Assembly: GCA_965246845.1 (NCBI GenBank)
Contig: CBDFFR010000004.1
Coordinates: 213,361 to 277,360, forward strand
Reading direction: 5' to 3'
DNA: 64,000 nucleotides
Source: Aggregatilineales bacterium
Lineage (GTDB): Bacteria; Chloroflexota; Anaerolineae; Aggregatilineales; UBA2796
The notes beneath the pieces were generated by a model. It was not told where the DNA came from and searched no databases. It saw only the letters and a list, made by a program, of their open reading frames with translations. Each line of letters begins with the position of its first letter. Position 1 is the first letter of the stretch. This document shows, piece by piece, positions 25,224-59,528 of the stretch. Both the position numbers and the translations under genes were made by a program.

Positions 25224-27460
25224 ATGCCCTGCCTCAATCTCTGGTTCATATCCCATTCGGCAACGAACACCCTTACGAACAGGAACCCATCGAGCGCACG
25301 CCGCGCCATCCGCTGGCCGGGCAACCTGTGCGGCTCGGTGTGCAAGCACAGCCGGAAACAGCGCAGGTGCGGGTCGAATGGCAGGTGAATGGCGTGCCAC
25401 AGACTGCAATCGCGGCGCAAAGGCTGGCAGATCGTGGGGGAGATGAGCGTAATGCGCAATATTCCGACCTGTGGCAGACTGAACTCCCCGCGCAACCTGA
25501 CGGCGCGAATGTGACGTACTGGCTTGTCGATGATACAGGCCATGCAACAGCACAATTTAAATATAAGGTACGCGGCTGGCAGGACGCGCCGCAGCTTGGC
25601 GTGAAGTGGCAGCAGGTGAAGCCGGGTGTTTGGCGCGGCAAGTTGAGCGACAGTGCAATGGGCGAGGTTCCATTATCGTTACTGCGCGCGGAACAGCTCG
25701 ACGGCGATCACGCGGAAACGCAGCGCGCCCGGCTGACCTTCGCCTCTCCAATTGATGAGGCATTTTATGGCTTCGGCGAGCGATTTAATGTACTCGATCA
25801 GCGCGGCCAACGGGTGGACGTGCGTTGCTTCGAGCAATACAAGACGCAATACGAAGGGACACGAACGTATATCCCGATGCCGTTCTTCGTCTCGTCGCGC
25901 GGGTACGGGCTACTGGTCGAGTCGCCGCGCTATATGGCCTTCGATCTGGCGGCGAGCGTAGCGGATACGTGGACACTCGAAGCGGAAACAGACGAAGACG
26001 GCGCGTTGGAATTCGTCTTATTCGTGAATGATCATCTGCTCGCAATCACGGGGATGTTCTGCGATTACACGGGCAAACCGGAGTTGCCGCCCGATTGGGC
26101 GTTCGGGTTGTGGATGAGTGGCAACGAATGGAACTCGCAGGCGCGCGTCGTGGAAGAGGTAAACGCGACCTTGCAGCACGACATTCCTGCAACGGTGCTG
26201 GTGATTGAGGCATGGAGCGATGAAGCGACGTTCTATATATGGAACGATGCGCAATATTTGCCGCAAGCGGGCGCAGAGCGTTTTCGCTATGCCGATTTCA
26301 CCTTCCCACCAGATGGCAAATGGTACGACCCGAAGGCGATGATCGATTGGCTTCATTCGCTCGGTATACGGATCATCCTCTGGCAGGTCCCGGCATTCAA
26401 GAAAGCGGACGCGCCGCAGGCGCAGCACGACGCCGATACCGCGCACTTTATCGAACATGGATACGCGGTCAAGGATGCGAATGGCGAACCGCACCGCATT
26501 CGCCCGTTCTGGTTTCGCGGCGGGATGCTCTGGGATGTGACGAACCCCGCTGCGCGCGAGTGGTGGCTCGGCAAGCGTGAATATCTGCTTGAAGACCTGC
26601 ACATCGACGGCTTCAAGACAGATGGCGGCGAACATCTGTGGGGTTATGATGTGCAGTTCGCGGATGGGCGCACAGGCGCGGAACTCTGGAATGAATATCC
26701 CCTGCAATATATCAAGGCGTATCACGAGTTTGCGAAGCAGCACAACCCGGACTCGCTCACGTTCAGCCGTGCCGGGTTCACGGGTGCAGGGCGCTTCCCG
26801 GCACATTGGGCAGGCGACGAGAACTCGACGTGGGAGGCGTTCCGTGGGTCGATCCTCGCGGGGTTGTCGGCGGGTATCTCCGGCATCCCGTTTTGGGGGT
26901 GGGACATCGGTGGGTTTAGCGGCGACATTCCGAGCGCCGAATTATACCTGCGTGCGGCGGCAATGGCGGCGTTCTGCCCGATCATGCAGTATCACGCGGA
27001 GTACAACGCGCACCAATTGCCGCGCCGTGATCGCACACCCTGGAATATCGCGGAGCGCACCGGAGATGAGCGCGTCATTCCGGTTTTCCGAAAGTTCGTG
27101 AAACTGCGCGAACAGTTGATGCCGTACATTTTGAAGGAGGCAGCATATAGCGCGGAGACGGGTCTGCCGATGATGCGAGCGCTGCCGCTGGTCTACCCGA
27201 ACGATGTGGCTTGCCGAGCATTCCCGTACCAATATCTTTTCGGTCGTAATCTGCTGGTCGCGCCCGTGACGGAGCCGGGCGAGGAAACATGGCGGGTCTA
27301 TCTACCGGTGGGGGAATGGACCAATTACTGGACGGGTGAGCGTGTGGAAGGCGGGCAGGTGATTACGCGCGATGTAGCGCTGGATGTAATTCCGGTGTAC
27401 ACGCGCACTGGTTTCACCCAAACACCTCATACGCAATCAACTCCAGTTCCTCCGCTTTGA
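25220..27460 (+). CDS. Glycoside hydrolase family 31 (alpha-glucosidase/alpha-xylosidase-like)
   Basis: The ATG at 25220 overlaps the GH15 stop (ATGA). Motifs GLWMSGNEW, IDGFKTDGGE and HWAGDENSTWE. Confidence 0.8.
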   Translation: MNALPQSLVHIPFGNEHPYEQEPIERTPRHPLAGQPVRLGVQAQPETAQVRVEWQVNGVPQTAIAAQRLADRGGDERNAQYSDLWQTELPAQPDGANVTYWLVDDTGHATAQFKYKVRGWQDAPQLGVKWQQVKPGVWRGKLSDSAMGEVPLSLLRAEQLDGDHAETQRARLTFASPIDEAFYGFGERFNVLDQRGQRVDVRCFEQYKTQYEGTRTYIPMPFFVSSRGYGLLVESPRYMAFDLAASVADTWTLEAETDEDGALEFVLFVNDHLLAITGMFCDYTGKPELPPDWAFGLWMSGNEWNSQARVVEEVNATLQHDIPATVLVIEAWSDEATFYIWNDAQYLPQAGAERFRYADFTFPPDGKWYDPKAMIDWLHSLGIRIILWQVPAFKKADAPQAQHDADTAHFIEHGYAVKDANGEPHRIRPFWFRGGMLWDVTNPAAREWWLGKREYLLEDLHIDGFKTDGGEHLWGYDVQFADGRTGAELWNEYPLQYIKAYHEFAKQHNPDSLTFSRAGFTGAGRFPAHWAGDENSTWEAFRGSILAGLSAGISGIPFWGWDIGGFSGDIPSAELYLRAAAMAAFCPIMQYHAEYNAHQLPRRDRTPWNIAERTGDERVIPVFRKFVKLREQLMPYILKEAAYSAETGLPMMRALPLVYPNDVACRAFPYQYLFGRNLLVAPVTEPGEETWRVYLPVGEWTNYWTGERVEGGQVITRDVALDVIPVYTRTGFTQTPHTQSTPVPPL

Positions 27461-30400
27461 CCTGCTCGAAGGTGGAGGGGCGCGCGACCTCGCGGTACAG
27501 GTCGTTCTCGATGAAGAACTCGTCAAGCGCGCGGATGAGCGTAAGCGTGTCCTGCTGCTCACGGTTGCTTGCTTGGATGGCCTTCAGGTGCGTGTCCTTG
27601 CGGAACGGATCAAGCGAGACGGTTTGCAGGGTGTCCGTGACGCGCTTGCGCAGCGCGTCCAGCCCGGCCTGACCTTCCGGCGTGTCGATGGGTGCGGAGA
27701 ACAACCCGGTCTGGTTGATAGAGGCGGCCAGATCATTGTTTAGCCTGCCGAGTCGCGGCGGGATGCTGCGCGCCCGAACAGCGCTGTTGATTTCCTTGAG
27801 GACGTCATCGGTGGCGCGCTCAAGCAGGTCGTAGACCTCGAAGCCGGACGGCAGGACACGCTTCTCGTTCATCGGCGTGAGGAGGTAGCGGAAAAGTCGG
27901 CGCTTATCGGAGATGATCTCGCCTTCGTTGGTGTACAGCCGCCAGAAGTGACGGTCGCCCGCTATAAACGCGAAGAACACGCCGGAGGGTCGCGGCGACT
28001 TCGCGATGCCAGAGCCGATTCCTTTCGGGATGGCGCGCACACGCTCCAGGCCGACCTGTTGCAGGAAGATCGTCAGGGGCAGCTTCATCTCGTCGGTGGA
28101 GACGAGTTCGGCATCACGTTCGAGTTCTTCCACGAAGGACGAGTCGCCCGCGCGCAGCTTACGAAGCTGATCCAGCGAGCGCGTGCCAATGACTTCACCC
28201 AGCACACTCGCATCCAGGCCGACGGTGGTATCTATCGCGCGGATACGCTCTTGCAATCGCTCGACCAGACCGAGCAGGCTCTCCAAGCCCTGCTGCGGGA
28301 AGCAGTTGTAGATGTCGAGTTCCGCGAACTGCGTACCGAGTCGGTCGATGCGGCCTGCGCGCTGGATCATGCGGATGGGCGTCCAGTGCAGGTCGAAGTT
28401 GACGATCACGCCTGCATCTTGCAGGTTCTGGCCTTCGGAGAGGACATCGGTAGAGATCAGGATGTCAATTTCAGGTTGATTGCTGAGGACGCTCTGCACC
28501 GTCTCTTCCGCGCCCTTGTTGGCGATGGGAGCGAAACGCCGCACCAGCGATTCACGGTTCGCGCCATCGGAGCCGCCGTGTATCACTTCGATGATGGGTG
28601 CGCGGCTCCATTTCGATTGCCAGTGCGGATCGTTGCGGAGGGCATCGTAGACATACTGTGCGGTATCGCGATAGTAGCTGAACAGGAGGACTTTTCGGTT
28701 CGCGAGTTCGCCACCGAGCAGGGCTTTGACTTCGCTGAGTTTAGTGTCACGCTTGCTTTCGTCGTCGAGGCGCTGGATCAGGTTCACTTTGTCGAGGATG
28801 GCATCCAGTGCTTCAATGTCGCGTTCCAATTCGCGGCGGATTTTGCGCAAGTCGTACTGCCCGATTTCGACCTCTTCCAATGTGTCGATCAGTGTGGCTA
28901 CGTTTTCGCTGCTGTCGTCCTCTGCGCCTTCGATGGCGAGCAGCTTGCGGTTGGCGGCGCTATCGAGCAGACGATTTTGCGAGATCAGGATTTGGTAGAA
29001 GCGTTCCTGATATTCGCGCTGCTTCTCGATGCTCATGCGGAACGCGGTCAGTGAACTTTCGAGGCGTTTCAGGTAGAGCGTTTTGAGGATGGCGATGATC
29101 GCTTCCGAACTTTGCAGCTTCTTCTTCGATTCGGCGTCGCGGTCGCCCTTGCGGTGCTGCTCGATGTTGAAGCTGATCAGGTGCAGGCTATCGATGAGGG
29201 TGGCGATCTGCTCGTAGAAGCCGTCGTAGGTGGTCATCAGGTCGTAGTTGACACTGTGCAAGCGACGCTCCGGGAAGTGGATTACGCCTTTGCCGGGCAG
29301 CCGGATTTCCTCGCCTGCCGCTTGCCGCTGCTTGACATCCTGCCGGGAGCGGCGCACCATCACCTGTTCGAGCAGGGTGAAGATGTCGAGGCCGCCGTCC
29401 TGCACTTCGCGGAAGAAGCCTTTCAGGTTGCGGATGCCGTAGTCGCGGAAGAAAGCGTCCTGTCCGCGCGTGATGAACGAGAGCTGGTTGTAGAGGTCCC
29501 AGATAGAGTTGTTGATCGGCGTGGCGGTCATCAGGATGACCGTTTTTTCGGGTTTACCCGTCGCGAGCAGCTTCATCAGGTTGCCGTAACGACCCGTACC
29601 AGGATTGCGGAAGTTGTGCGACTCGTCCACGAGGATTACATCATAGCCGTTGAACGCCTTCCAATCGAAGTTGGCGCGGCCAAGCGACTCCTGCGAGATG
29701 ACATCGGCTTTGATGCCGTACTCGTTCAGCTTCGGCTCCCAGATCAGTTCGCGAAGCTGCGCGGGACAGATGACCAGCCCTTTCGGAATGAACCCCTTGC
29801 GGCGCTTGCCAAGGACGTAGTGTTCCAGCAAGCCCATCCCGATGTACGTCTTGCCGAGGCCGACCGCATCCGAGACGATGACGCCGCCGTGACGGTCAAT
29901 CAGGCGGATCGCCTCGCGCAAGCCTTCCTGCTGGAAGCTGGCGAGTTCGACGCCGAGCCGCGCCTCGATGCTTTCCGGGAGGATGCGGTCTTTGAAGTAT
30001 TCGTAGAGGACTTTGATGAAGACATCGTGCGGCGTCCAGCGCGCACCGTCGAACTTCGAGTCGCGGAGCATGTCGATCAGCAGGCGCTTCTGGTCCTCGC
30101 CTTCGGACCACATTCCCGCATACCAGTTCTCGCGCAGGTCACGCACGACGGGACCTTCCTGCCGGGTGATGTTGAGTTCGGCGCGGCGCGTCATACCCGA
30201 AGGCGTGAAGTTGCTGCTGCCGACGATGGCAAAATTGGGCATGAGGTAGGCTTTGGCGTGCAGGAACGAGCGCGCATAGAAGCGGACTTCGGCGCTGTCG
30301 CGTTCGAGAAAAGCACACAGGTCGTCAATGAGGCGAGCGTATTCACGGTTGAGCGGCAATTTTTCGAGGTCGCCACGCAGCTTGTCGCGGTAGTAGCGGC

Positions 30401-30647
30401 GCAGGTCCAGCGCGCCTTCGGCGGGGTCGGTGGAGTCAAGTTCGGGAGCGCGTCCAAGGAGCAGACGGAAGCGCTTCAAGCCGCGCAAGCCATCGGCCAA
30501 CATGCGCCATACTTCCGGCTCGAAGAAACCGCTCGCGATGTCAAGTTCATCCTGTCCGACGTTGACGAGCAGTTCATTCAGGACGGTCACGAGGCGACGC
30601 TCTACGGTGGTGTTGTCGATGTAGTCCGGCGGGTAGTATTGGGGCAT
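27414..30647 (-). CDS. PLD(HKD)-nuclease + SNF2-family helicase fusion (DrmD-like)
   Basis: HKD motif FLHAKAYLMPNFAIVGSSNFT. SNF2 motifs DAVGLGKTYIG (I), LVDESHNFRN (II), MTATPINN (III) and QRAGRIDRLG (VI). Confidence 0.8.
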   Translation of the reverse strand: MPQYYPPDYIDNTTVERRLVTVLNELLVNVGQDELDIASGFFEPEVWRMLADGLRGLKRFRLLLGRAPELDSTDPAEGALDLRRYYRDKLRGDLEKLPLNREYARLIDDLCAFLERDSAEVRFYARSFLHAKAYLMPNFAIVGSSNFTPSGMTRRAELNITRQEGPVVRDLRENWYAGMWSEGEDQKRLLIDMLRDSKFDGARWTPHDVFIKVLYEYFKDRILPESIEARLGVELASFQQEGLREAIRLIDRHGGVIVSDAVGLGKTYIGMGLLEHYVLGKRRKGFIPKGLVICPAQLRELIWEPKLNEYGIKADVISQESLGRANFDWKAFNGYDVILVDESHNFRNPGTGRYGNLMKLLATGKPEKTVILMTATPINNSIWDLYNQLSFITRGQDAFFRDYGIRNLKGFFREVQDGGLDIFTLLEQVMVRRSRQDVKQRQAAGEEIRLPGKGVIHFPERRLHSVNYDLMTTYDGFYEQIATLIDSLHLISFNIEQHRKGDRDAESKKKLQSSEAIIAILKTLYLKRLESSLTAFRMSIEKQREYQERFYQILISQNRLLDSAANRKLLAIEGAEDDSSENVATLIDTLEEVEIGQYDLRKIRRELERDIEALDAILDKVNLIQRLDDESKRDTKLSEVKALLGGELANRKVLLFSYYRDTAQYVYDALRNDPHWQSKWSRAPIIEVIHGGSDGANRESLVRRFAPIANKGAEETVQSVLSNQPEIDILISTDVLSEGQNLQDAGVIVNFDLHWTPIRMIQRAGRIDRLGTQFAELDIYNCFPQQGLESLLGLVERLQERIRAIDTTVGLDASVLGEVIGTRSLDQLRKLRAGDSSFVEELERDAELVSTDEMKLPLTIFLQQVGLERVRAIPKGIGSGIAKSPRPSGVFFAFIAGDRHFWRLYTNEGEIISDKRRLFRYLLTPMNEKRVLPSGFEVYDLLERATDDVLKEINSAVRARSIPPRLGRLNNDLAASINQTGLFSAPIDTPEGQAGLDALRKRVTDTLQTVSLDPFRKDTHLKAIQASNREQQDTLTLIRALDEFFIENDLYREVARPSTFEQVKAEELELIAYEVFG

Positions 30648-30740
30648 GGTGTGCGGCTCTGTTCGCGATTAGGACGAAGTTGTGCGTAGTATGACACACT
30701 TCGCTGCGAAGCAGGCTGCGATTGTGATTACAAAAGCATT

Positions 30741-31031
30741 TTAGTCGCCCTGATGCGCAAGCACAATTTGCGATGGCGGTATACCCGCCGCAATAAGCGC
30801 ATCCTCAAGCGGTCTATCGGTCGTGTCCGTCTCAATGATAACCTTCTCGCCGTCGATGCGCGTCAGGAGCATGATGTGCGGTTCAATTTCACGTTTGAGC
30901 GGCACGACAAGCACGGTATCGATCTTCTGCGCGTTATCGTGAAGATAATGCAGTTTCGCATTGAGCGAACGCCCGGCATAGCTCGCTACAACGCGGCTTG
31001 TGGTTGCTTCCAAATCAATTATTCGCTCCAT
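30741..31031 (-). CDS. xisI: XisI-family protein
   Basis: 96 aa. The pattern ...RIDGEKVIIETDTTDRPLEDALIAAGIPPSQIVLA resembles XisI (DGKIWIQxDxTE...L...GVPxxDIVLAF). Overlaps xisH by 13 nt. Confidence 0.6.
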   Translation of the reverse strand: MERIIDLEATTSRVVASYAGRSLNAKLHYLHDNAQKIDTVLVVPLKREIEPHIMLLTRIDGEKVIIETDTTDRPLEDALIAAGIPPSQIVLAHQGD

Positions 31032-31441
31032 CGCACGATCTCCTCTTTTACCAGATCAACTACCAGCAACGCGATCCCGTGTTCCTTGAGAATTGTCACA
31101 ATCGCGTTATTGAAATATTTTGAATACGTGCTTTCCGGGACGGCCATGTAGATCGGTAACGCAAATCCCTCACGTTCCGATATTCCTTTGTACACGACAC
31201 ACTGCCCTATCGCTCGATGAAGTTCCGGTGTTTTCTTCGGGAGCGTAAAACATTTCACCTCAACTCCAATCTCGAATGCCTGTCGTCCGTTGGCAGGACG
31301 TGAAGCTGTCAGATCGATGTGCAGGTCATTCCCAAACGCATCCGTGATATGCAATGGGGTTGGGTCTACAACCCATTCCGCTTTGCTCAATGCACTCGCG
31401 ACCTGAAAATGGCATGTATCGAGTTCCGGCAACGGGTTCAC
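31019..31441 (-). CDS. xisH: XisH-family protein (restriction-endonuclease-like fold)
   Basis: 140 aa. FH..VA.AL.K.EW.V..DP..I......L.IDL.A...., AFEIGVEVKCF, HRAIGQCVVYK and IYMAVPESTY match the XisH family pattern as I recall it. Confidence 0.65.
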   Translation of the reverse strand: MNPLPELDTCHFQVASALSKAEWVVDPTPLHITDAFGNDLHIDLTASRPANGRQAFEIGVEVKCFTLPKKTPELHRAIGQCVVYKGISEREGFALPIYMAVPESTYSKYFNNAIVTILKEHGIALLVVDLVKEEIVRWSE

Positions 31442-31512
31442 TCCACGAATATAGGGATATTCTATCGGGTTTTGTGTAGATTATTCGACGGAACACTTGT
31501 TCAATTATAAGT

Positions 31513-32415
31513 GTGACGTATAATCACAGCACACATAGCCGAGTCAAGCGCTCTATAAACAAGCAAAAAAAGGGAACTGGACGACGGGGCATCGAGTGGA
31601 CCGATTACACATGGAACCCTGTCGGTGGTTGTCAACATCGCTGCCGCTGGACAATGCCCGATGGGACAGTCGCGGAATGCTACGCGGAAACTGTCGCGGA
31701 GCGCATCGCACAGGCATCCTATCCACATGGCTTCGAGCATCATTACTGGCGACCGGAATCGCTCAACGAGCCGCTCAAAGTCAAAGCACCTTCGCGTATC
31801 TTCCTCGACTCGATGTCGGACCTGATGGGGCATTGGGTCCCGGAAGAGCAGATTTTGCAGGTTCTGGATGTCTGCCGCCGCGCACCCTGGCATCAATTCC
31901 AGCTCCTCACCAAAAACGCGCCGCGCCTGCGCGAATTCGAGTTCCCATCGAATGTGTGGGTTGGAGTGAGCGCCCCGCCGACCTCAATGTTTGGAAAGCC
32001 GCTGACCTTTCGGCAGCAGCAGCGAATGGTTGAAACAATGATGTCTGTTCTGGAAAAAGTTGATGTTCCAGTGCGCTGGATGAGCATCGAACCCCTGAGT
32101 TTCGATATTGCGCCGCTGCTCGTCGGAAGCCCGCTTGAATGGGCGGTTATTGGAGCAGCAACCAATGGCGTCGCGACCTACCAGCCGAAAGAAGAATGGG
32201 TGACAAACGTGTTGAGTGTCCTCGACGCTCAGAATACCCAAGTGTTCTTCAAGGGCAATCTGGATTGGCAGCCTTGGTGCGAAAATTTGCCGATTGTTAT
32301 GTCACCGGTGGCAACCTACAACGTTTTCGATAGTAATTCAAAAGTTGTATTTCAATCTCAGAAAAATTTGGACGAATATACGGCCATCCCTCGTCGTCCT
32401 CAGGCGCATGTGTGA
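31513..32415 (+). CDS. Phage Gp37/Gp68 family (DUF5131) protein
   Basis: IEWTDYTWNPVGGCQHRCRWTMPDGTVAECYAE (Cx3Cx10C), FLDSMSDL, LLTKN and SIEPL. GTG start at 13 of 31513. The 3' tail overlaps the convergent HEPN-like ORF by 119 nt. Confidence 0.7.
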   Translation: MTYNHSTHSRVKRSINKQKKGTGRRGIEWTDYTWNPVGGCQHRCRWTMPDGTVAECYAETVAERIAQASYPHGFEHHYWRPESLNEPLKVKAPSRIFLDSMSDLMGHWVPEEQILQVLDVCRRAPWHQFQLLTKNAPRLREFEFPSNVWVGVSAPPTSMFGKPLTFRQQQRMVETMMSVLEKVDVPVRWMSIEPLSFDIAPLLVGSPLEWAVIGAATNGVATYQPKEEWVTNVLSVLDAQNTQVFFKGNLDWQPWCENLPIVMSPVATYNVFDSNSKVVFQSQKNLDEYTAIPRRPQAHV

Positions 32416-33082
32416 CTGGCGCGTGTTCTACAATCAGGTCCAGTAATTTGTCAAGCGGCGTATCTTTTTCAAAACCCGTACCATAACTAAGATAAGCAAA
32501 GGAGCTGTAGGCTGGTGAGCAAAGCAGGTTGAATAGATGTTCAGCAGAGTTCATCAAGGCTCTTAAATTCGACAACTCTATATTGTCGAATTTCTTCTCA
32601 TATTTTGGATTGAGGCTCAGATGTGCAAAACGGTTGTTCCTTAATGCCTTAATTTGCTCACTCAGACTTTGAATTTGCTTGTCAAAACTAGAGCGCTTCA
32701 AATGCTCATTAAATTTGCTGATACTCTCTTGGTCGCGTAGGCGGGAGCTAATCTGGGTGCGAAAGTTCCCAATCGTAAGAACGTCTTTGCGAGGATCGAC
32801 AAAGAGGGTAAATGTGCTAACAATTACATATTCAAGCAGCGTAACTTTAACGACTTTCCAGAAGACGTAATCTTCTGGTACAAGAAATAGACCGAATGGA
32901 AATCTATGCAGACGTTCAAAGATAAGCAGACGCATTTCGAGGGCGATCATTTCCGTATACAACGACTCCTGTAGACGTTCATATTCAGGAGCCCACTCAG
33001 GTTGCAGCAGCGCTCGTATGTCAAGCAGGTTGTCTTCGTCGTCATCTGGAAGAGCGAAAACTATTCCATCTAAGCTGTCCAT
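32297..33082 (-). CDS. HEPN-like (AbiU2-type) protein
   Basis: 261 aa, AT-richer than its neighbours. Rx4-6H motif in IKALRNNRFAHLSL, of the R[N]xxxAH type seen in Abi/HEPN RNases. Overlaps the upstream ORF by 13 nt. Confidence 0.45.
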   Translation of the reverse strand: MDSLDGIVFALPDDDEDNLLDIRALLQPEWAPEYERLQESLYTEMIALEMRLLIFERLHRFPFGLFLVPEDYVFWKVVKVTLLEYVIVSTFTLFVDPRKDVLTIGNFRTQISSRLRDQESISKFNEHLKRSSFDKQIQSLSEQIKALRNNRFAHLSLNPKYEKKFDNIELSNLRALMNSAEHLFNLLCSPAYSSFAYLSYGTGFEKDTPLDKLLDLIVEHAPVTHAPEDDEGWPYIRPNFSEIEIQLLNYYRKRCRLPPVT

Positions 33083-33663
33083 GGATGTGTCTTCGCAATA
33101 TCGATGCCTTGCAAGTGCTTCGAGAGACGACCCAACCGCGCCGCAAACTGCTGATTCATATATGCCCTGATTTCCTGTAGTAGCGTATTTACAGCCAGTG
33201 TCATCGCCTGCTCATTGTTCTCACCCTTTACGTGAACGTGTACATCTCTTTGCCCGAACCCCGCCCCTGAAAGGGTCAAAGATGCAGGCGAGAACGAGCG
33301 AACACGCGGACCAATTGATGAAATGCTTGAAATTTTCAGGGCAACAGGTTGCCCGCGCGCTCCGGGATCGTCGATACCACGCGCGATGAGGCCAAGCGCA
33401 TGAGAATACTGATTTTCAAAAAAGACAACAAAATCATTGTAGAGTGTCATCATCACCTGAATTGTTTGCTCCTGCGTTTGTCCATCGAAAAACACCTTGA
33501 AAGTTGCCTTGTCATTTAGCTCCGTTGAGAAGAAACGCAGTTCGGAGTGCCAGCGCTCCGAAGTTGGTGCATTCTCATTTACGTAGGTTGTGATTTCGGC
33601 TGTTACAGCCTGACTGTTCGCTAATTGCACAGTCGAGACAGGTTTTGCGTTGTGCATCGTCAT
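33070..33663 (-). CDS. Hypothetical 197-aa protein translationally coupled to the methyltransferase
   Basis: The ATG at 33663-33661 overlaps the MTase stop (ATGA). The listed 252-aa ORF is an N-terminal extension into the MTase gene. No motif recognised. Confidence 0.5.
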   Translation of the reverse strand: MTMHNAKPVSTVQLANSQAVTAEITTYVNENAPTSERWHSELRFFSTELNDKATFKVFFDGQTQEQTIQVMMTLYNDFVVFFENQYSHALGLIARGIDDPGARGQPVALKISSISSIGPRVRSFSPASLTLSGAGFGQRDVHVHVKGENNEQAMTLAVNTLLQEIRAYMNQQFAARLGRLSKHLQGIDIAKTHPWTA

Positions 33664-36600
33664 TCCTCGTTGTTTTCGATTGCTGCCAAAGTTTCTGTCA
33701 TCACGCCCGCCGTCCCCTCCACCAGCGCGATCTCCGCCTCCGTCAACCCATAGGCCGTATAGACCGCCGCGTTCAACTCCGCTTCCAGCTTCGACAGCCG
33801 CGCCGCATCGTGCGCCGCCGCGAGGCACGCACGCGCGAGGTCTGCGATTTGCGCGCGGAGTGGGTCGGGTGGGTTGGGGATGGGGAGTTGTTCGACATAT
33901 TGAGTAAAGAAGCGCAAGTATCCGCCTCTTATTTTCTGATCCGACAAATTACGATAGAGCCATTCAACAACGGTTGAATTTAACACGCCTAAAACGTAAA
34001 AATCAGCAATTGGTAGGAAGTAAACAGTATTCGCGCAAAATGTACCTTGTTCATCTATAACAAAACGAAAGTCATTCGCAATGTCTGGATATACTATTTT
34101 GGGCATGTCAAATTGATGGTAAATGCCCATTTGTGGTTGTTGAAGCTCATACCAAGCGTGATTTGCACTGGTGGCTCGTGCCTCCAACTGTGGCTTGAAA
34201 CGTCGCAGGTGTTCTTCTATTGCAGGGTAAGCTATGATGTTCAACCCTCTTTTAGCGAAAATCAAATAACTACCTTGATGACCAATCTTCCAGCGCTTAA
34301 TGTCCTTCCCGACGACAAACGGCTTAATAACTTCCGCGCTCTTCGAGTCGGCGGCGATGAGTTCCGCGCGTTTGTCGCCATCAATGACGAAAGCCTCATT
34401 TAATCCTGTAACTACGCCACGAAATATTTTTCCATCGACGTAAGTTTTAAGTGGCGCTCCTAAATGCTTGATCTTTTCGAGCAACGTAGCATTTCGCTCG
34501 TTGGTGAGCGTCCATTGGGAGCCATTTAGCGCAGTTTGCGGCAGTGATTGGCCTGTTAATTTTATAACGGCACGTAAATCCATATCATCGCGCCAATCTT
34601 CAATTTTCGTGAAGTGTGTTATGTCACCTCGTTGTTTGTGTAGCACCAATACGAGTGGATAGGTTGTCGCGTCTTTGAACACAGGCGCATCATCGAAATC
34701 TGTCAACTGCTGAACGTGAAATTGCGCCAAGTATTTACGCAAATTCGCGCCGTATCCACCTTTGATGAACTTATTCGGGCTGATAAATGCGAGTGTTCCA
34801 CCATCGCGGAGAAGTTGAATTGCACGCGCATAGAAATAGACGTAAAGATCGGCGCGCGCGGAGAACACTTCGGGGTAGGTTTTCTCTAGTTCGGCACGTA
34901 TGCCCTTAAATTTATCCATGCTTACGTAAGGCGGGTTGGCGACCACAATATCGAAGCCGCCGCGAGCCGCGAAAACCGTGTGGAAGTGCAGGCGGTAGAG
35001 GAAGAAGGGGAGCGGCTTCGTCAGGTCGCGCATCTGCGCTTCGATTTCGCCGAGGCGGGCATAGCGGACGGCTGCGGAGTCGAGGGTGCGTTTATCCTTC
35101 GCGGAGAGGACGCCGTTTTGCTGACCGCTTTTCTTTCCATAGATATTGACCTGCTCTTTGGCGGCGTCAATCTTCACGGCGAGGGCGTTGAGGGCGATCT
35201 CGCGTTCGCGGATGACAATTTCGGCGCGCAGTTCGCGGCGTTCATCGGGCGCGGCACGGAAGAAACGGCGGTGCAGCGTATCGAAGTCCTCACGCGAGCG
35301 CTGCACGGCCTTTTCACTCTCAAAGAGCGCCATTTTTCCCTGCACGGCGTCGCCGATCAGGTTTTGCTGGACGAGGGCTTGCGGGTCGGCGGCGAAGAGC
35401 GATTCGGAGCCAGCGGTGAGGATCGACTCGCCATCCAGCGTTTCGATCAGGCTGTCGCCAACCATCAGCTTGTATTCGAGGTTGGGGAGCGGGCGGGCTT
35501 GTTCGAGGGTCTGATCGACGACGAGGGCGAGCCACAGGCGAAGCTGCGCGACCTCGACGGCTTCCGGCTTGAGGTCCACGCCATAGAGCGTGTCGCGGAT
35601 GATGGCTTCCTTCCAATCGGCAACCTGCGCGGGCGTGACGGCGACTCCGTTGGCGAGGGCGCAGGCACGGCGCAGGCGCAGAATTTCGGTCATCATACCG
35701 ATCAGGAAGCTGCCGGAGCCGACGGCGGGGTCGAGGACGGTGAGGGTATCGAGGGCGGCGGAGATGCGGTCGGCTTCGGCGGGGGTCAGCGCGGTGGGTT
35801 GCTCCGCATCGAAGAGGGCTTGCGCACGTTCGCGGGGAACATCGGCGCGGGTCGCGAGGTAGCCGGCGAGCGCTTCCTGACACATATAGGCGACGATCAC
35901 GCGCGGGGTGTAGAAGGAGCCAGATTGCCCGCGATCCTGCGCCTGGAGCTGGTTCTCGAAGACCTTGCCCAACATTTCGGGGTCCACCGCGACATCGAGT
36001 TCGAGGGGCGTGTCTTCACTGACGGTGAAGTTGTAGCGGTTGAGGAAGGCGAGAATGCCCGTGTCGCCCATCGGGTCGAAGAGCGAGTCCGGGAGGATGA
36101 GCGTCCCGGCGGGGTCGCGGGCGGGGTCGAAGAGACCTCCATTGAGGTATGGGATTGTTTCCCAGCCGCGCGTCCATGAGGGCAAGGCGCGGCGGTCGGG
36201 CGGGGTGTTCATCGTCTCGAAGAAGACCGGGGCGAGGACCTCCGTATAATAGTGGAAGGTCTCGACGTTCGGCGGGGTGTTATCCGCGTCGTGGCGCAAC
36301 ATGCAGAGGCGGTATTGTTCGGTGAGGAAGCGCTGCCCGCCCGCAAGCCAGCCCTTGCGCTGGAGGAAGTAGAGGAACATCAGGCGTCCGAGGAGGCGTT
36401 GGGCGAAGGCGCGCAGCTTGTCGGCTTCGTAGAATTCGCGAACGCCGGGGTTGTACTTTCGGGCGGCTTCGATGACGGCGCGGAAGAACTCGCTGTACTG
36501 GCGGTCGAACTTGCGGGTGAGGGCAGTCACGCTGAAGGCGTCGCGTTGCGCATCGTAGACCTGGATGCCGCCCCGGTTCCATGCGGCGAGGGTGCTCAGG

Positions 36601-37019
36601 GTATCGACATCGTGGCGGGTCGCGTCGGTGGTGACGAGTTTGAGTTTGTTGAGGCGCAAGCTGGATTTGGTGGCGGAGCCTGCGAAACGCGGGTCAATGA
36701 AGACGACTTCGCGGTAATCAGCGGTGACGACGAGCAGACAGGTTCCGCGACTGAGCAGGTTATAGGCGATGCCGCGCAGGTGGGATGGGCGCGGATCGCG
36801 GGTTTCGAGCAGGTAAATGGTGTGCAGGTCGCGTTTGGCAAGGATGTACAGCTTCGCGATGTCAGCGCGTTCGGGGGCGGTGAAGTCGAAGGCGTCCAGA
36901 CCGTCGGCCTCGAAAGGGTCTGCGTCACCGGGTTGGTAGCCGAGGCGCTCAAAGAGCGTGACGACATCGGCGGCGGTGTGGAGCGCGAGGTGAGCGAAGG
37001 TGATCGAGTCGTTGGGCAT
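33660..37019 (-). CDS. Large N6-adenine DNA methyltransferase, Eco57I/PglX/DrmMI-like, with no obvious nuclease motif
   Basis: SAM motif VLDPAVGSGSFL. Catalytic motif DIVVANPPYVSM. N-terminal region ...RLMFLYFLQRKGWL... is typical of the type IIG/BREX-PglX-like family. C-terminal TRD-like region. Confidence 0.8.
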   Translation of the reverse strand: MPNDSITFAHLALHTAADVVTLFERLGYQPGDADPFEADGLDAFDFTAPERADIAKLYILAKRDLHTIYLLETRDPRPSHLRGIAYNLLSRGTCLLVVTADYREVVFIDPRFAGSATKSSLRLNKLKLVTTDATRHDVDTLSTLAAWNRGGIQVYDAQRDAFSVTALTRKFDRQYSEFFRAVIEAARKYNPGVREFYEADKLRAFAQRLLGRLMFLYFLQRKGWLAGGQRFLTEQYRLCMLRHDADNTPPNVETFHYYTEVLAPVFFETMNTPPDRRALPSWTRGWETIPYLNGGLFDPARDPAGTLILPDSLFDPMGDTGILAFLNRYNFTVSEDTPLELDVAVDPEMLGKVFENQLQAQDRGQSGSFYTPRVIVAYMCQEALAGYLATRADVPRERAQALFDAEQPTALTPAEADRISAALDTLTVLDPAVGSGSFLIGMMTEILRLRRACALANGVAVTPAQVADWKEAIIRDTLYGVDLKPEAVEVAQLRLWLALVVDQTLEQARPLPNLEYKLMVGDSLIETLDGESILTAGSESLFAADPQALVQQNLIGDAVQGKMALFESEKAVQRSREDFDTLHRRFFRAAPDERRELRAEIVIREREIALNALAVKIDAAKEQVNIYGKKSGQQNGVLSAKDKRTLDSAAVRYARLGEIEAQMRDLTKPLPFFLYRLHFHTVFAARGGFDIVVANPPYVSMDKFKGIRAELEKTYPEVFSARADLYVYFYARAIQLLRDGGTLAFISPNKFIKGGYGANLRKYLAQFHVQQLTDFDDAPVFKDATTYPLVLVLHKQRGDITHFTKIEDWRDDMDLRAVIKLTGQSLPQTALNGSQWTLTNERNATLLEKIKHLGAPLKTYVDGKIFRGVVTGLNEAFVIDGDKRAELIAADSKSAEVIKPFVVGKDIKRWKIGHQGSYLIFAKRGLNIIAYPAIEEHLRRFKPQLEARATSANHAWYELQQPQMGIYHQFDMPKIVYPDIANDFRFVIDEQGTFCANTVYFLPIADFYVLGVLNSTVVEWLYRNLSDQKIRGGYLRFFTQYVEQLPIPNPPDPLRAQIADLARACLAAAHDAARLSKLEAELNAAVYTAYGLTEAEIALVEGTAGVMTETLAAIENNEE

Positions 37020-37169: not shown

Positions 37170-37919
37170 TTGATGGCATCCGAAACAAGATTTGGCATTC
37201 TACGAAATGTGCTGCGCGCATTCGGGCTTCCGCAAGACGCCGTGGATGATGTTGTGAACTGGATTGTGGACCTGCTCGCGGGTAAGAGCGAATCTGCTGG
37301 GCAACAGTCGCCGGAGTTTCCGTATCATTTGCGTCCGGGGCTGCTGTCGCCTGCGGAGCTGTGTTTCTATGAGACGTTGAAGTTGGCCGTCGATGAGCGC
37401 GCGGTGGTGAATGCGAAGGTCGGCCTGGGTGACATCTTCATGGTCAAAAGCGACGATCAGAGCCGTTACCGTATTTACACAAACAAAATCGACCGCAAGC
37501 ACGTCGATTTTCTGCTGTGTGACCCGAAAACCATGCGCCCGCTGGTGGGCATCGAACTGGATGATAAGAGCCATCAGCGGGCAGATCGGCAAGCGCGCGA
37601 TGAATTCATTGACAAGGTCTATCAGGCTGCGGGACTTCCCATATTGCATGTTCCCGCGAAGCGGAGCTATGAAGCAGGGGAGGTGGCTGCACAGATTGCA
37701 TCCTACTTGAGTGCTGCACCTGTTTCCCTCGTCCAAGTGCCTCCGGTCCGAGCGGAGTTACCTTCCATCTCAGTGCCAACACCGCAAGGGTCGCCACGTT
37801 GTCCCAAATGCGGCGGGGAGATGGTCCTGCGGACGGCCAAGAGCGGCGCGAATGCGGGTGGGCAGTTTTGGGGCTGCGCGAGTTATCCGGGCTGCCGTTC
37901 GATGCTGCCGTACCGGTGA
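37170..37919 (+). CDS. DUF2726 (endonuclease-like) protein with C-terminal topoisomerase-type zinc ribbon
   Basis: LLSPAELCFYETLKLAV...KHVDFLLCDPKTMRPLVGIELDDKSH (DUF2726 pattern). CPKCGGEMVLRTAKSGANAGGQFWGCASYPGC (C4 zinc ribbon). Confidence 0.65.
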   Translation: MMASETRFGILRNVLRAFGLPQDAVDDVVNWIVDLLAGKSESAGQQSPEFPYHLRPGLLSPAELCFYETLKLAVDERAVVNAKVGLGDIFMVKSDDQSRYRIYTNKIDRKHVDFLLCDPKTMRPLVGIELDDKSHQRADRQARDEFIDKVYQAAGLPILHVPAKRSYEAGEVAAQIASYLSAAPVSLVQVPPVRAELPSISVPTPQGSPRCPKCGGEMVLRTAKSGANAGGQFWGCASYPGCRSMLPYR

Positions 37920-44942: not shown

Positions 44943-45102
44943 AGCTCGGTCGAGACAAACTTGTTCTCAACAAGACTGGAAACATTCTGTTGTGAGCAAA
45001 CGCGAGGCTATGTGTCTCGCGTTCACCTGCTTATGGCAAACGCAGCTTCGCTACGGCGGTCCGCGCGACTGTGGCTTGGTGTTCATCACTAATCTCCCTC
45101 AT

Positions 45103-46457: not shown

Positions 46458-46460
46458 GAT

Positions 46461-46907: not shown

Positions 46908-47383
46908 TTCTGCTCCGTCGGTGGTTCGATAAACGCCTGCCTGATGGCGTCCTCAAGTGTTTTGAGGTATGGCATTCCTGAGCGGTGCGCGAACGCCAGC
47001 GCGCGATCCCACGCCTCTTTGAATGAGGTCTGCTGTTTGGTGGTAGCATTCAGGATCGGGTTGAGCATCTGCCACATGAATGCGAGCGTGACCAGATCGT
47101 TCCACAACAATTCGGACTTTGTGGCGTCGATAGTCTCGCGCAAGCCACGCTGAAAGTGGCGGCGTGAGCCGATGATTTCCTCCTCGTTGTCGATGTACAG
47201 CCGGATCGCCTCGCGCACCAAATCTGGTACGGTCGTTTGGGGTCCGCGCTGGTCGCGGAGCTGCTCCAGTTTGCGTTGTATTTCTAAGCTCACGTACACA
47301 TTCAGCCGTGCATCAAATCGTTTGTGTTCGACCACTGTGGTTGATCCTCTCTTGCTACTCGCGTGCGACTCCCATGTATGCAT
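46904..47383 (-). CDS. Ribbon-helix-helix (CopG-like) domain protein
   Basis: Probable start MHTWES at 47383. RLNVYVSLEIQRKLEQLRD fits an RHH beta-strand/helix. The upstream part of the listed ORF (to 47704) covers the hairpin cluster and looks non-coding. Confidence 0.45.
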   Translation of the reverse strand: MHTWESHASSKRGSTTVVEHKRFDARLNVYVSLEIQRKLEQLRDQRGPQTTVPDLVREAIRLYIDNEEEIIGSRRHFQRGLRETIDATKSELLWNDLVTLAFMWQMLNPILNATTKQQTSFKEAWDRALAFAHRSGMPYLKTLEDAIRQAFIEPPTEQK

Positions 47384-47524
47384 TTTGTGATCTGGAATGC
47401 CCGGAAAATCCGGTGATTTACTCAATTCGACACCTGACACCTCACCCCTATGAATAGGTCCAGCCCGCGTCCGCTGTCCCGCGCGTATTGGCATGGGGGA
47501 CCTTGCGCGCAGTCGCGCCGATGT

Positions 47525-55895: not shown

Positions 55896-58800
55896 CTATT
55901 CTCCTATGCGTCCAGCCCAGCGCGTACCGGCATCATCAAGTTCGATTGTTAGCTGCTCATCCACCTCACGCAAGCTGCGCATGGGAGGTGGAATCAGTGC
56001 TTCGGAGACCCACTCAATATGCGAACCTGCTCCAAGAATTTGGTCAATATATTGATCTACCCGCTGCCCGATTTCTTGCTTGAACGCTTTTGGCCCCGGC
56101 GCATCAATATTTGAGACCCGATATGCTTCTTCTAGGAAAGGAATGAACTGTTCTCTTCGTACTTTTCCCTCCCGAATTAGTTTTTTCAGAAGGTCAAGGC
56201 GAGTTAGACTTCCTTTCCCCTTATCTTTCTCACTAATTGCGAGTCCCTGAAGCAACATTGCCATAAATAGACCAGGTAATGTGCGGGTCACACTGAACCG
56301 AGACCAACGATTGATTGCGACTGGTTCTACAAGTTGCCCTAGAAACTCGTGGAACTTGGTGAAGTATCCGTAATGACTTTGATCTCGCTCTCTTGCCGGG
56401 TGGTGGCACACAAAAACCAAGCCAACATGAGATCGTCCCACACGGCTAGAGGACTGGATGTACTCTGCCACTTGGTGTGGCATTCCGTAGAAGATAATAG
56501 AATTTAACCGACTCACATCAACGCCATGACTAACCATACTCGTTGCCAAAATCGTGTCTGGCGCTTCTCCCGGTAGTGGAAGTTGACGTTCAATTCGTTC
56601 AAGAGTTACCGCGACATCTGATGTCGTTACACTGCCAGTTAGTTCCGCGATTTCTAGGGCACGATACCCGCTTCGCTCAAGATCAGTATTCACCGCATCG
56701 CGCAAGTCCGTCTTAATGGACGACAAATCCCGTCCGCTCTGGAAATAAATTAGCGAAGTTACGTAGGGATCAAGCAGTTCTAACCAAGCATCTGTTCCAA
56801 GCTCAACCTCCCCGCCATATGGATTTGGCTGTCCAATCTCCATTACCTGAAGTCCTTGGACAACTTCATGGTAGTACTGAATTAGCTCTAGAATTGCGTT
56901 GAAGATCGTCTTGTTGTGTGGGATGATCCCCAGAAAAAGACGCTGCGGATAGTCAAGCGTTTCTGCATAAAACGACGTTTCAAGAGTTGGTCCAGGGCCA
57001 GGAAAGACCCTTGCTTCACTCGTGGTCCGACCATATAGGTGCTCTACCTGCCGCTCAAAAGCCTCAATGGTTGCCGACGATGCAATAATCTTTATCGGGG
57101 CTTCTTGCCCATATTCCCGTAAAAGGCGCTGTACAAAGGTTTCGTAATGCGCGTCAAACGTTCCCAAGCCTTCTTTTAACAGGTGCAATTCATCTTGAAT
57201 GAAAAGGGTCGGCCCAGATAATCCGTTCGGTACATCGCGTTTCAGCAGTTTCATGTCTTTACATTCCGGTTGGCAGCACTTTTCCGAATAGTACCCATGC
57301 ACCGTACACCATCCATCAACTTTTCCAAATAACAGTGACATATTCTTCTGATTGCCAATCCCAGCCAGCTTATCTATTGTTCCAACAATTACCGAAGGTA
57401 GATAGCGGTAGATTTCATTATCAACGACATAGACGGGGATGTAACCATTATCGAACTTACAGTTGGGATTAGTACAACGATGCCGCAGCCGCACCGCCTT
57501 CTCATCAAAAATGACTTCAACCGAGTTGGTGCGGCAAGACGGGCAGCGAATAATACGCTTCCATTGTTGGCGATCTCTTGCATCTAAAGCGCGGTCCCAA
57601 TCAGGCTCTCCTGGCCTGCCTCCAGTGGGAGGCGATAGCTTATTTGGAGTTCCGCCAGACCCTACAAAATAACCGACCGCAAAACCTGCGACATCGCGCC
57701 CTGACAAGCGAGGTTCTGAGCTTTGTTCTCGCCTCACCAGTTCAGCTAGCCCCATGATGTCTGCGACGCGCTGTGTTTGCTGGAGTGTAAGGAGGCGCAG
57801 GGGAAACCTCGTCCAAGCCGTTACTCCAGCCCGTTTCCCCCGCAGGCGGTCAAAAAAACAGTGAAACACGATTACGCCGAGATATGCCTCTGTCTTCCCA
57901 CCACCAGTTGGAAAATAAACAATATCGACCATTTCGCGTTCATTTGGAGCTGAAAAACTTGGATCAAGTAGCGCGGCTATTCCAGGAATCTGGCTCACCA
58001 GGAACACGATTTGAAATAACCGCCAAGCTTGTTTTTCTGAACGGCTAAAGGTTTCATTCGTTAACATGAAGGCGGTGCGAGTATCATTATTCGTCCGAAC
58101 CAAGTTCAAGCCAGCTTCGAAACGTTCAATTTCTGACTGGAACTCTCGAAAGTTTTTCAGATATTCCTGTTCAAATCGTTCATTCCACCAATCTTGACTT
58201 GCGTAGTAACTGGCACCTTCATCCCAGGTTGCCAGGTAATCACGCATACTCGACAGGATCGCTTCTAGTACTGAAATAGGGTTCGTAGCCAATTCATCAA
58301 ATCGCGCAACAGGATGAGACTGTGTACGGTAGCGTTTTTGGCGGTATAAAGGAACGCTTGTTGTGATCAGCGCGACACCATCATCTTCTTCGCCCCGCTC
58401 AATACTGCAATTGAAGCCTCGGGCAGGAACGGCACGATACTGGCTATATCGAAATCCGCGTGGCGCGAGATCGAACTCAAAAGGTATACAATCGCATTTT
58501 TCGAAGTTGAACCCGGCACCGGTTTCAAAGAAAAACGGCTCAACATTTCGGTTGGTTTCAAGCATGGGCGAATTATTCGCAAACTCTATCGAAATAAGCC
58601 GCTGCCCCTCCCCGTCTGTTAGCTCACTAGCACGAGTGGAGGCGACAACGTTCCATTTCCATTTGGGCACGACCTGTGTCCCCAATTTCTTGCAATAATC
58701 GCGATAATCGTCACCCGCAATATCTGATAAGACACTTTCAGGAACTCTAACTGGCGTGTCCTGATCACTCTGGGTTCGCAGGTTGTCTGGATCGGTAAGT

Positions 58801-59528
58801 GCTACAGTTTGGGCACGTCTCGTTTCTTCATCAACAGCTTCCTGTAGGTTGATCGCATCAACTACCCATTCACTTTGGCTATCTTCCCCAACTACCTTGA
58901 GTCGAACCGATCCGCTAGCGTAGCATGATATTTTCTTGAATTTTACGTAGAGCGTATCTGTAGGCGGTCGGCTTTTGCGCTTTCCTTTTAAGATAGCCGC
59001 TGCGTCTGAGGCATCGTCAGACCGATTCTGGCCGATGTCACTGGCACCTATGGGCTCACTTGTGAAGGTTTCAGTCTCGGTTGATGCGGTAGTTGATCCC
59101 GTCTCTGAGCCATTCCCCGCTGTCTTCGCTTGGTGTTCACTTTGTTGTTCGAAACTGGGGAATACGCGATAGTAACATGCCCATCGCAACCGAACATGAA
59201 CGACAAACTCTGAACTCTGTGGACGAACTCTGAATTCACCGCCAAAAGCGACCGGTGCCAGCTTTGTGAGCAATTCACTCGACAGGAAGGAAGCCGTGGC
59301 ATCCTCATCTTCTGGTGAAGGGCGTAAGTTTCCGATGAAATACTGATCTCTCGGTAGATTTAGTGTACATTCAGCCAAATTGCTGCCACTCGCGCGATTG
59401 CAGACTTCACCTGCAATGTAACTAGCTAAACCTTCTTCTTCAAAACCTCGTTCACTGTCAGTCAGTGATTTCAAGTTATTCAAATAGCGGCCCCCCCTTC
59501 TACCCGACCAAGCATTTCTCTTGTCCAA
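55896..59528 (-). CDS. drmA: Large SF2 DExH helicase, DISARM DrmA-like
   Basis: Motif I FPTGGGKTEAYLG, motif II FIQDELHLL, motif III SSATIE, motif VI QSSSRVGRS. 1210 aa with a long N-terminal domain, followed by DUF1998 and PLD genes. Confidence 0.75.
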   Translation of the reverse strand: MDKRNAWSGRRGGRYLNNLKSLTDSERGFEEEGLASYIAGEVCNRASGSNLAECTLNLPRDQYFIGNLRPSPEDEDATASFLSSELLTKLAPVAFGGEFRVRPQSSEFVVHVRLRWACYYRVFPSFEQQSEHQAKTAGNGSETGSTTASTETETFTSEPIGASDIGQNRSDDASDAAAILKGKRKSRPPTDTLYVKFKKISCYASGSVRLKVVGEDSQSEWVVDAINLQEAVDEETRRAQTVALTDPDNLRTQSDQDTPVRVPESVLSDIAGDDYRDYCKKLGTQVVPKWKWNVVASTRASELTDGEGQRLISIEFANNSPMLETNRNVEPFFFETGAGFNFEKCDCIPFEFDLAPRGFRYSQYRAVPARGFNCSIERGEEDDGVALITTSVPLYRQKRYRTQSHPVARFDELATNPISVLEAILSSMRDYLATWDEGASYYASQDWWNERFEQEYLKNFREFQSEIERFEAGLNLVRTNNDTRTAFMLTNETFSRSEKQAWRLFQIVFLVSQIPGIAALLDPSFSAPNEREMVDIVYFPTGGGKTEAYLGVIVFHCFFDRLRGKRAGVTAWTRFPLRLLTLQQTQRVADIMGLAELVRREQSSEPRLSGRDVAGFAVGYFVGSGGTPNKLSPPTGGRPGEPDWDRALDARDRQQWKRIIRCPSCRTNSVEVIFDEKAVRLRHRCTNPNCKFDNGYIPVYVVDNEIYRYLPSVIVGTIDKLAGIGNQKNMSLLFGKVDGWCTVHGYYSEKCCQPECKDMKLLKRDVPNGLSGPTLFIQDELHLLKEGLGTFDAHYETFVQRLLREYGQEAPIKIIASSATIEAFERQVEHLYGRTTSEARVFPGPGPTLETSFYAETLDYPQRLFLGIIPHNKTIFNAILELIQYYHEVVQGLQVMEIGQPNPYGGEVELGTDAWLELLDPYVTSLIYFQSGRDLSSIKTDLRDAVNTDLERSGYRALEIAELTGSVTTSDVAVTLERIERQLPLPGEAPDTILATSMVSHGVDVSRLNSIIFYGMPHQVAEYIQSSSRVGRSHVGLVFVCHHPARERDQSHYGYFTKFHEFLGQLVEPVAINRWSRFSVTRTLPGLFMAMLLQGLAISEKDKGKGSLTRLDLLKKLIREGKVRREQFIPFLEEAYRVSNIDAPGPKAFKQEIGQRVDQYIDQILGAGSHIEWVSEALIPPPMRSLREVDEQLTIELDDAGTRWAGRIGE

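Follow-up and report, generated by a model that had tools for sequence, protein, structure and literature searches.

Two probable independent defence systems in one mobile-DNA-rich island of an Aggregatilineales bacterium, in place of a split class 1 DISARM system

Does the defence island of an Aggregatilineales bacterium (assembly GCA_965246845.1) hold a class 1 DISARM system that successive insertions have pulled apart, or two systems of separate origin that merely lie side by side? The question is raised by a 64,000-nucleotide stretch of contig CBDFFR010000004.1 (hereafter the window; it lies on the contig designated C4 of the genome designated G000), in which the initial annotation recognised all five class 1 DISARM functions in two blocks on one strand: genes for a PLD plus SNF2 helicase protein and a methyltransferase (MTase) on the left, and drmC, drmB and drmA (53469-59528) on the right. 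All these genes were recovered in the open reading frame (ORF) listing at the positions assigned to them, on the minus strand, and the distance of about 16 kb between the blocks also holds, with 16.45 kb from the start of the MTase gene at 37019 to the end of drmC at 53469. We refer to the MTase and the PLD-SNF2 protein as system A (27414-37019) and to the DISARM-like cassette, which runs past the end of the window, as system B (53469-64418). Our analysis points with high confidence to two independent defence systems, both apparently intact as judged from their sequences, that share one mobile-DNA-rich island. Two systems in one such island is an ordinary arrangement, and each of the two is a variant of a kind already known.

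The proposal of five class 1 functions stands for broad domain classes and falls at the level of orthology. The 1077-aa product of the gene at 27414..30647 (minus strand) combines an N-terminal PLD/HKD nuclease with a Swi2/Snf2 ATPase (Pfam PLDc_2, SNF2-rel_dom and Helicase_C), as had been annotated, and that of the gene at 33660..37019 (minus strand, 1119 aa) is likewise the expected Eco57I/N6_Mtase/TaqI_C protein: a gamma-class N6-adenine MTase of the PglX/MmeI-like kind with a TaqI_C specificity domain (Pfam Eco57I, TaqI_C, N6_Mtase and MmeI_Mtase), in which no domain of a nuclease was detected. Their suggested likeness to DrmD and DrmMI can be measured against a genuine, contiguous class 1 DISARM locus of the same genus (G002, C54:1658-19500), which has the order DrmD, a 226-aa ORF, DrmMI, four cargo genes, DrmA and DrmB; the cargo between drmMI and drmA spans about 3.3 kb and includes a PDC-S13 homologue. 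With the PADLOC DrmD model the G002 protein scores 1380 bits against 112 for the window SNF2 protein, whose top model is instead C3a139 'HKD+Snf2' (216 bits). With the DrmMI model the corresponding values are 1739 and 144 bits, and the best PADLOC models for the window MTase are those of REase_MTase_IIG (394 bits). In NCBIfam the SNF2 protein reaches 140 bits on DISARM_DrmD, which has a cut-off of 610, and the MTase has no match to a DrmMI model. BLASTP comparison with the G002 proteins gave identities of 24% (SNF2/DrmD) and 26% (MTase/DrmMI), over the catalytic cores only, and DrmD, unlike the window SNF2 protein, is without a PLD domain.

A phylogenetic tree of 27 helicases, built with IQ-TREE, placed the window SNF2 protein within a clade of 11 PLD-SNF2 proteins of such MTase-linked pairs (support of 100 in the Shimodaira-Hasegawa-like approximate likelihood ratio test, SH-aLRT), about 4.6 substitutions per site away from the 15 DrmDs (SH-aLRT 98). 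Model scores, pairwise identity and tree thus all set this protein apart from DrmD, and the equation of the MTase with DrmMI has to be abandoned as well. DrmDs scoring above the NCBIfam cut-off occur in 25 of 401 genomes of the phylum. The right-hand block also departs from class 1: its DrmA is best matched by the PADLOC model PDLC02576 versus PDLC02567 for the class 1 DrmA of G002, and the requirement that drmE be absent, part of the PADLOC definition of type I DISARM (PMC9252829), is violated by a DrmE gene at 59480-62104. Elsewhere in G000, the best match to the DrmD model is another gene, on contig C5, that encodes a BrxHII/DrmD-like SNF2 protein (379 bits, below the cut-off); it lies about 7 kb from a gene for a DUF499 (BrxC-like) ATPase (C5:417224-427607), and the two possibly belong to a BREX-related system.

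The span assigned to the right-hand block stopped at 59528, thereby omitting drmE and the gene upstream of it, which together define the block. The cassette starts with a gene for a protein with GNAT-like, ABC ATPase and ASCH regions (62196..64000 in the window, continuing to the window-equivalent position 64418; minus strand; Pfam ABC_tran, ASCH and a weak Acetyltransf_1 match), of which the full length, 741 aa, was taken from the genome beyond the window end. It is followed by the signature gene of class 2 DISARM, drmE (59480..62104, minus strand, 874 aa; Pfam DrmE_C, 1.1e-43, 149 bits; NCBIfam DrmE_fam, 90.9 bits, above the cut-off of 80), and the reading frames of drmE and drmA overlap by 49 nt. 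The core genes drmA, drmB and drmC are all present in the window according to PADLOC, in agreement with the initial annotation: the DrmA helicase (55896..59528, minus strand; PDLC02576, 3.4e-151; 446 bits on NCBIfam DISARM_DrmAS, under the cut-off of 950) has GGGKT and DELH motifs, DrmB (53995..55893, minus strand) matches at 2.1e-49 (66.7 bits on NCBIfam DrmB_fam, below the cut-off of 240), and DrmC (53469..54038, minus strand; 4.7e-19) is a PLD nuclease with a Pfam PLDc_2 match and the motif HAKFCVAD.

Tracing the 74 DrmE homologues found at E<=1e-10 to their contigs showed that the order GNAT/ABC(±ASCH), DrmE, DrmA, DrmB, DrmC recurs in seven other, independent contexts, with DrmE identities of 28-51%: two metagenome lineages (soil included), a Waterburya metagenome-assembled genome, Syntrophobacter fumaroxidans, two further assemblies and a complete 1.9-Mb genome (G128). 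The GNAT/ABC gene is kept upstream of DrmE in every one of them, and unrelated genes flank the cassette on both sides. None of these seven homologous cassettes has a methyltransferase in the operon, the C5 methylase DrmMII included, and tblastn detected no homologue of the window MTase or of the PLD-SNF2 protein in their 10-kb flanks; in G128 no MTase homologue is found anywhere in the genome at E<=1e-5. In at least five of the seven the fetched flanks are free of any methyltransferase. The G128 cassette is followed, about 80 bp after drmC, by a convergent MmeI-like type IIG gene, and on the Waterburya contig an integrase and parAB separate the cassette from an MT-A70 gene at a distance of 4.5 kb; the two enzymes belong to different families and occupy different positions, as expected of defence-island neighbours. 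In a more distant DrmE-DrmA-DrmB set from the same phylum (G161), DrmE is preceded by genes for a C5 MTase and an HhH-GPD protein, as is canonical for class 2, and the first gene of our cassette is placed roughly where that locus carries its C5 methylase. In gene content, then, system B is a methylase-less, class 2-like DISARM lineage. It is absent from all 60 related genomes searched, so that the comparison with relatives covers the presence or absence of each block.

The only C5 methylase of G000 with a PF00145 match is encoded on a different contig from the cassette (C12:1321590-1328135), where it heads an operon with genes for a 1002-aa HATPase_c/HEF_HK protein, a Response_reg_2 protein and an HNH nuclease. 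This operon probably forms a methylase-associated defence system of its own, and its unrelated content and location on another contig rule out the enzyme as a displaced DrmMII. The toxicity that had been attributed to a DISARM core parted from its methylase is weaker than was asserted: deletion of the class 1 methylases in Serratia led to no autoimmunity (bioRxiv 10.1101/2021.12.28.474362), and the cassette family described here is normally without an adjacent methylase. With the solved DrmAB complex as a guide, the DrmAB of system B would most likely load on the ends of foreign DNA.

System A, in turn, recurs without system B. In the survey of 60 related genomes a PLD-SNF2 homologue was found in 14, and 11 of these also have an MTase homologue no more than a few kb away on the same strand, the contigs of the remaining three being too short to tell. 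DrmA is encoded in just one of the 14 (G028), on a different contig from the pair. The layout with the MTase first and the PLD-SNF2 protein after it is repeated in three distant genomes that have MTase homologues on long contigs: in Microcoleus the PLD-SNF2 gene directly follows the MTase gene, in Aggregatilinea lenta a DUF3644 gene separates them, and in the third genome an 82-aa ORF and a PIN gene (PIN toxin-antitoxin) do so, with the module situated after fatty-acid synthesis genes. No drm genes occur within 9 kb of the pair in these three genomes. Across the relatives the module can thus be described as an MTase gene, zero to two variable genes and a PLD-SNF2 gene, the variable genes including an OLD/GajA-like ATPase in G021, DUF3800 in G001 and uncharacterised genes in G046. 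The slot would hold differing small defence genes from genome to genome. In the window it is occupied by a 197-aa ORF (approximately; 33070..33663, minus strand; no Pfam, PADLOC or NCBIfam match) whose start ATG overlaps the MTase stop as ATGA at 33660-33663, within ...GAGGAATGACG..., by an AbiU2-type HEPN gene (32297..33082, minus strand; Pfam HEPN_AbiU2, 5.2e-08) and by a DUF5131 gene (31513..32415, plus strand; Pfam DUF5131, 9.6e-38; PADLOC PDC-M41B/PDC-M30B, about 1e-39). A further plus-strand ORF of 132 aa in the slot (30753..31151) has neither a Pfam nor a PADLOC match. A distant relative of the PLD-SNF2 protein in G128 (C1:1731589-1736462, 28% identity) adjoins an N6_N4-type methyltransferase, which suggests that the helicase-nuclease can partner another methylase class.

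Both proteins of system A are full-length and match the homologues of intact pairs in length, and catalytic motifs are intact in all the enzymes of both systems. The PLD-SNF2 protein retains HxK...GSSN, GLGKT and DESH; since each chain carries only one HKD, a complete PLD active site would require a dimer. The MTase, in which motif I (DPAVGSG) and motif IV (NPPY) are present, is one of a family with more than 4,400 members, chiefly from Chloroflexota and cyanobacteria. Its AlphaFold model, built from an alignment of 32 sequences (predicted local distance difference test score, pLDDT, 82), was compared with known folds using Foldseek, and it matches CamA and BseCI over the core of MTase and target recognition domain (TRD) and PglX/BrxX and MmeI over about 950-1,000 aligned columns; the matches of the full model are driven by this MTase/TRD core, not by the N-terminal domain. 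The N-terminal 130 residues form a confident alpha/beta domain in the model, in which no conserved (D/E)xK was found, the invariant or near-invariant polar residues being D101, K125, R135, H136 and D137, and no Pfam nuclease domain is matched in the protein. These data are consistent with, though short of proof for, the description of the enzyme as nuclease-less. Some members of the family (P0113, P0116, P0118 and P0149) carry fused nuclease domains of the DUF559/Vsr-like (PF04480) and PF18741 types, and therefore the family spans both nuclease-fused forms and forms with the nuclease in trans.

The biochemical activities that we ascribe to the two systems are predicted ones. For system A, we infer a minimal two-component variant of restriction-modification (R-M), in which the MTase would mark host DNA by N6-adenine methylation at a short target read by the TaqI_C-type specificity domain, and a dimer of the PLD(HKD)-Swi2/Snf2 protein would use ATP to act on and cut DNA that lacks the mark.

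G000 contains a second copy of this module, 87-89% identical at the DNA level, in two pieces that lie 0.9 Mb apart on contig C12; therefore the MTase and PLD-SNF2 genes duplicate as a unit. The first piece (C12:524892-531177, at 0.53 Mb) consists of a DUF2726 gene, the MTase copy and an IS3 element, and the second (C12:1431842-1437485, at 1.43 Mb) of an IS3 element, the AbiU2 copy and the SNF2 copy, so that each terminates at an IS3 copy, the two being 100% identical. The DUF2726 gene next to the MTase copy is 91% identical to its window counterpart and was duplicated along with the MTase, and the AbiU2 gene precedes the SNF2 copy as it does in the window slot, while the DUF5131 stretch has no DNA match there. 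In the MTase copy, which is intact, the TRD segment has no similarity at the DNA level to that of the window. The SNF2 copy has an in-frame deletion of 146 aa, and an IS5-family transposase gene (DDE_Tnp_1) abuts its 3' end. The target-site duplication is exchanged between these two elements: the tetranucleotide GTGG is found to the left of IS3 copy A and to the right of copy B (a chance match of about 1/256), as expected if a single IS3 insertion in the module had afterwards been resolved into a pair of copies; alternatively, the assembly may have been joined through the repeats. The copy on C12 may also be the real split system of this genome, and a natural case in which an insertion sequence has separated the two genes of a restriction-like pair, with the methylase intact and the nuclease-helicase deleted in part.

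The DNA between systems A and B has the composition given to it in the initial annotation, with two plus-strand defence-like genes, a primase relic, a Kelch gene, an integrative element and an IS3. Divergent from the MTase is a gene for a DUF2726 protein with a topoisomerase-type zinc ribbon (37170..37919, plus strand; Pfam), followed by one that joins a NERD nuclease-like domain to a UvrD helicase (38058..40100, plus strand; Pfam NERD, UvrD-helicase and UvrD_C; PADLOC C3a187 'NERD+UvrD', 3.8e-30) and is a candidate stand-alone defence gene. The relic (40182..40369) corresponds to the 3' end of a primase-helicase gene and has 71-78% identity with 42118-42304, a segment of the intact gene; next to it lies the gene for a Kelch-repeat protein (40464..41978, minus strand; Pfam Kelch_1/4/6). 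The plasmid-like integrative element (42027..52039) encodes, by Pfam matches, a PrimPol-AAA_25 replicase (42027-44942), an actin-like (ParM-like) partition ATPase (45384-46457) and a large serine recombinase (50084-52039), in addition to RHH protein and GNAT genes. The 1187-bp IS3-family insertion sequence (52072..53258), with 42-nt terminal inverted repeats and an rve/rve_3/HTH_21 transposase, is flanked by a 4-bp target-site duplication (CACC) and lies 210 bp downstream of the drmC stop, with no intrinsic terminator found between drmC and the element; the genome carries this element in three copies that are 100% identical. The insertion is a simple one and disrupts nothing. The intervening 16 kb probably stem from independent insertions, of the serine-recombinase element, the Kelch gene and IS3, that interrupted neither system.

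On a larger scale, the segment 10134-18178 of the window is repeated collinearly and in direct orientation a short way past the cassette, at the window-equivalent positions 65195-71887 (C4:278555-285247), with 83-90% identity. Each repeat holds two large serine recombinases, and together they bracket about 47 kb that include both defence systems and a sugar-utilisation operon (ROK, ABC transporter, GH15 and GH31). The bracketed stretch may represent integrative elements in tandem or else a single, large composite one. A repeat of 890 bp (window 11415-12307), which contains an ORF of 264 aa and is probably a further active insertion sequence, has five more copies, about 99.8% identical, on C5 and C12; one of them directly adjoins IS3 copy B on its left side, and another is found about 5 kb from IS3 copy A on the right.

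How do the alternatives fare against these observations? A single class 1 system, whose drmD, drmMI, drmA, drmB and drmC were parted by one insertion after another and whose MTase still protects the host in trans, would account for the common strand of all the genes, for the presence of SNF2, N6-adenine MTase, helicase, DrmB and PLD functions in the window and for the demonstrably mobile DNA between the blocks, and the G002 locus shows that a genuine class 1 system tolerates some cargo between drmMI and drmA. This reading is nevertheless refuted on both of the grounds that the initial annotation had named for its refutation: the blocks occur unlinked in other genomes, and the SNF2 and MTase proteins are placed outside the DISARM families. 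The presence of the drmE that PADLOC bars from type I, the failure of both proteins in every orthology test, the different model fitted by DrmA, and the fact that each block is complete elsewhere without the other, with no relative in which they are contiguous, leave it with a very small probability. The alternative that the initial annotation had offered, two independent systems, is the one borne out. At the opposite extreme, the left block might be a decaying remnant, in which an orphan methyltransferase and a stranded helicase-nuclease have lost their co-expression. Here the plus-strand DUF5131 gene and 132-aa ORF part the MTase from the PLD-SNF2 gene, so that a single transcript of the pair is impossible in the window, and the copy on C12 is visibly decaying, split by IS3, shortened in its SNF2 gene and abutted by an IS5-family transposase gene. 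Against this stand the full length and intact motifs of both window genes, their agreement in length with homologues of intact pairs and the variable cargo that is the norm between the pair in other genomes, and we regard decay as unlikely.

Several observations also weigh against treating the two systems as wholly independent. The cassette is co-located with gamma-class N6-adenine enzymes in two of eight contexts (the window and G128), and because one island is bracketed by paralogous recombinase modules the two systems may travel together. Moreover, in class 1 DISARM methylated DNA lowers the ATPase activity of DrmAB (PMC9142583), which offers a slim chance of functional cross-talk, with DrmAB sensing N6-methyladenine (m6A) laid by the neighbour. 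Systems of separate origin could on these grounds have become coupled: the cassette, having no methylase of its own, would read the m6A of the neighbouring MTase, and of its paralogue on C12, as 'self', and their co-residence would be selected. The type IIG N6-adenine enzyme that directly follows drmC in G128 would fit such a relation. Such coupling is nonetheless very improbable in view of the at least five other contexts whose fetched flanks lack a methyltransferase, the unrelated families (MT-A70 and MmeI-like) of the enzymes in the remaining two, the conserved first gene standing roughly in the methylase position of G161, and the 14 genomes in which the pair is found without linked drm genes; that the two systems form one functional unit, carried together between the recombinase modules, is similarly hard to credit. 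Finally, since DrmA and DrmB fall below the NCBIfam equivalog or subfamily cut-offs, the membership of system B in DISARM holds at the family level only. We therefore retain two independent systems in one island as by far the best account of the locus. The case also illustrates how the matching of broad domain classes (SNF2, N6-adenine MTase, PLD, helicase) across an island can mimic a 'split' system; here orthology cut-offs, a yardstick locus from the same genus and neighbourhood recurrence told two unrelated systems apart.

Among known systems, class 2 DISARM is composed of DrmE-DrmA-DrmB-DrmC-DrmMII (Ofir et al. 2018, as summarised in bioRxiv 10.1101/2021.12.28.474362 and PMC9252829). System B shares with it DrmE, DrmA, DrmB and DrmC, in that order and with overlapping reading frames, and differs in that neither the operon nor its surroundings carry a C5 methyltransferase, in its first gene, which is the GNAT/ABC-ATPase/ASCH one, and in its divergent DrmA, DrmB and DrmE, of which only the match to the broad DrmE_fam clears an NCBIfam cut-off. 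It lends independent support to a DISARM lineage without any methylase, which bears on the question of how DISARM avoids self-targeting. With class 1 DISARM, represented by Serratia sp. SCBI and G002, the window has in common the classes SNF2 ATPase, N6-adenine MTase and DrmA/B/C; the SNF2 protein differs in its N-terminal PLD and its 24% identity to DrmD, the MTase in its 26% identity to DrmMI, and the locus in its possession of drmE and in its non-contiguous blocks, each of which recurs alone elsewhere.

For system A, the architecture of helical spacer, gamma-MTase and TRD is shared by the MTase with type IIG/IIL R-M enzymes (MmeI, Eco57I and BpuSI) and with BREX PglX; unlike the type IIG/IIL enzymes, the window MTase has no detectable fused nuclease, and the nuclease would be supplied by the separate PLD-SNF2 gene. 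ARMADA, which consists of YprA, BrxHII and PglX (PMC12458937), is ruled out, as a YprA/DrmA-like gene is missing from system A and a PLD domain is part of the helicase. A closer likeness is found in the BREX-related type 2 or MANTIS system (equivalent to Gao_RL), which comprises the DUF499 ATPase MtsA, the small MtsB (DUF3780/DUF3870), the N6-adenine MTase MtsC and the HKD-SF2 helicase-nuclease MtsD (bioRxiv 10.64898/2026.09.23.753747; PMC12839542). Both pair an N6-adenine MTase with an SF2 (Swi2/Snf2) protein bearing an N-terminal HKD domain, a resemblance at the level of architecture only, given that the PLD-SNF2 protein scores 114 bits on NCBIfam phospholipD_antiphage, with its cut-off of 1100. 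No DUF499 gene is linked to the pair, the matches in G000, G021 and G046 lying on other contigs and G017 and G015 having none, and no MtsB-type Pfam match (DUF3780/DUF3870) occurs among the small ORFs between the pair in the window or in the relatives examined. Without a DUF499 or MtsB-like gene system A is ruled out as a member of MANTIS/BREX-related type 2, and its MTase would need to locate target sites unaided by a loader of the MtsA type. The MtsC/MtsD pair is nonetheless the closest published analogue of system A, and by this analogy the logic is likely the same, with methylation marking self and a dimeric PLD-motor restricting non-self. The widespread MTase/PLD-SNF2 module with its cargo slot thus looks like a minimal relative of MANTIS/BREX-related type 2, and bears on whether the DUF499 loader is dispensable.

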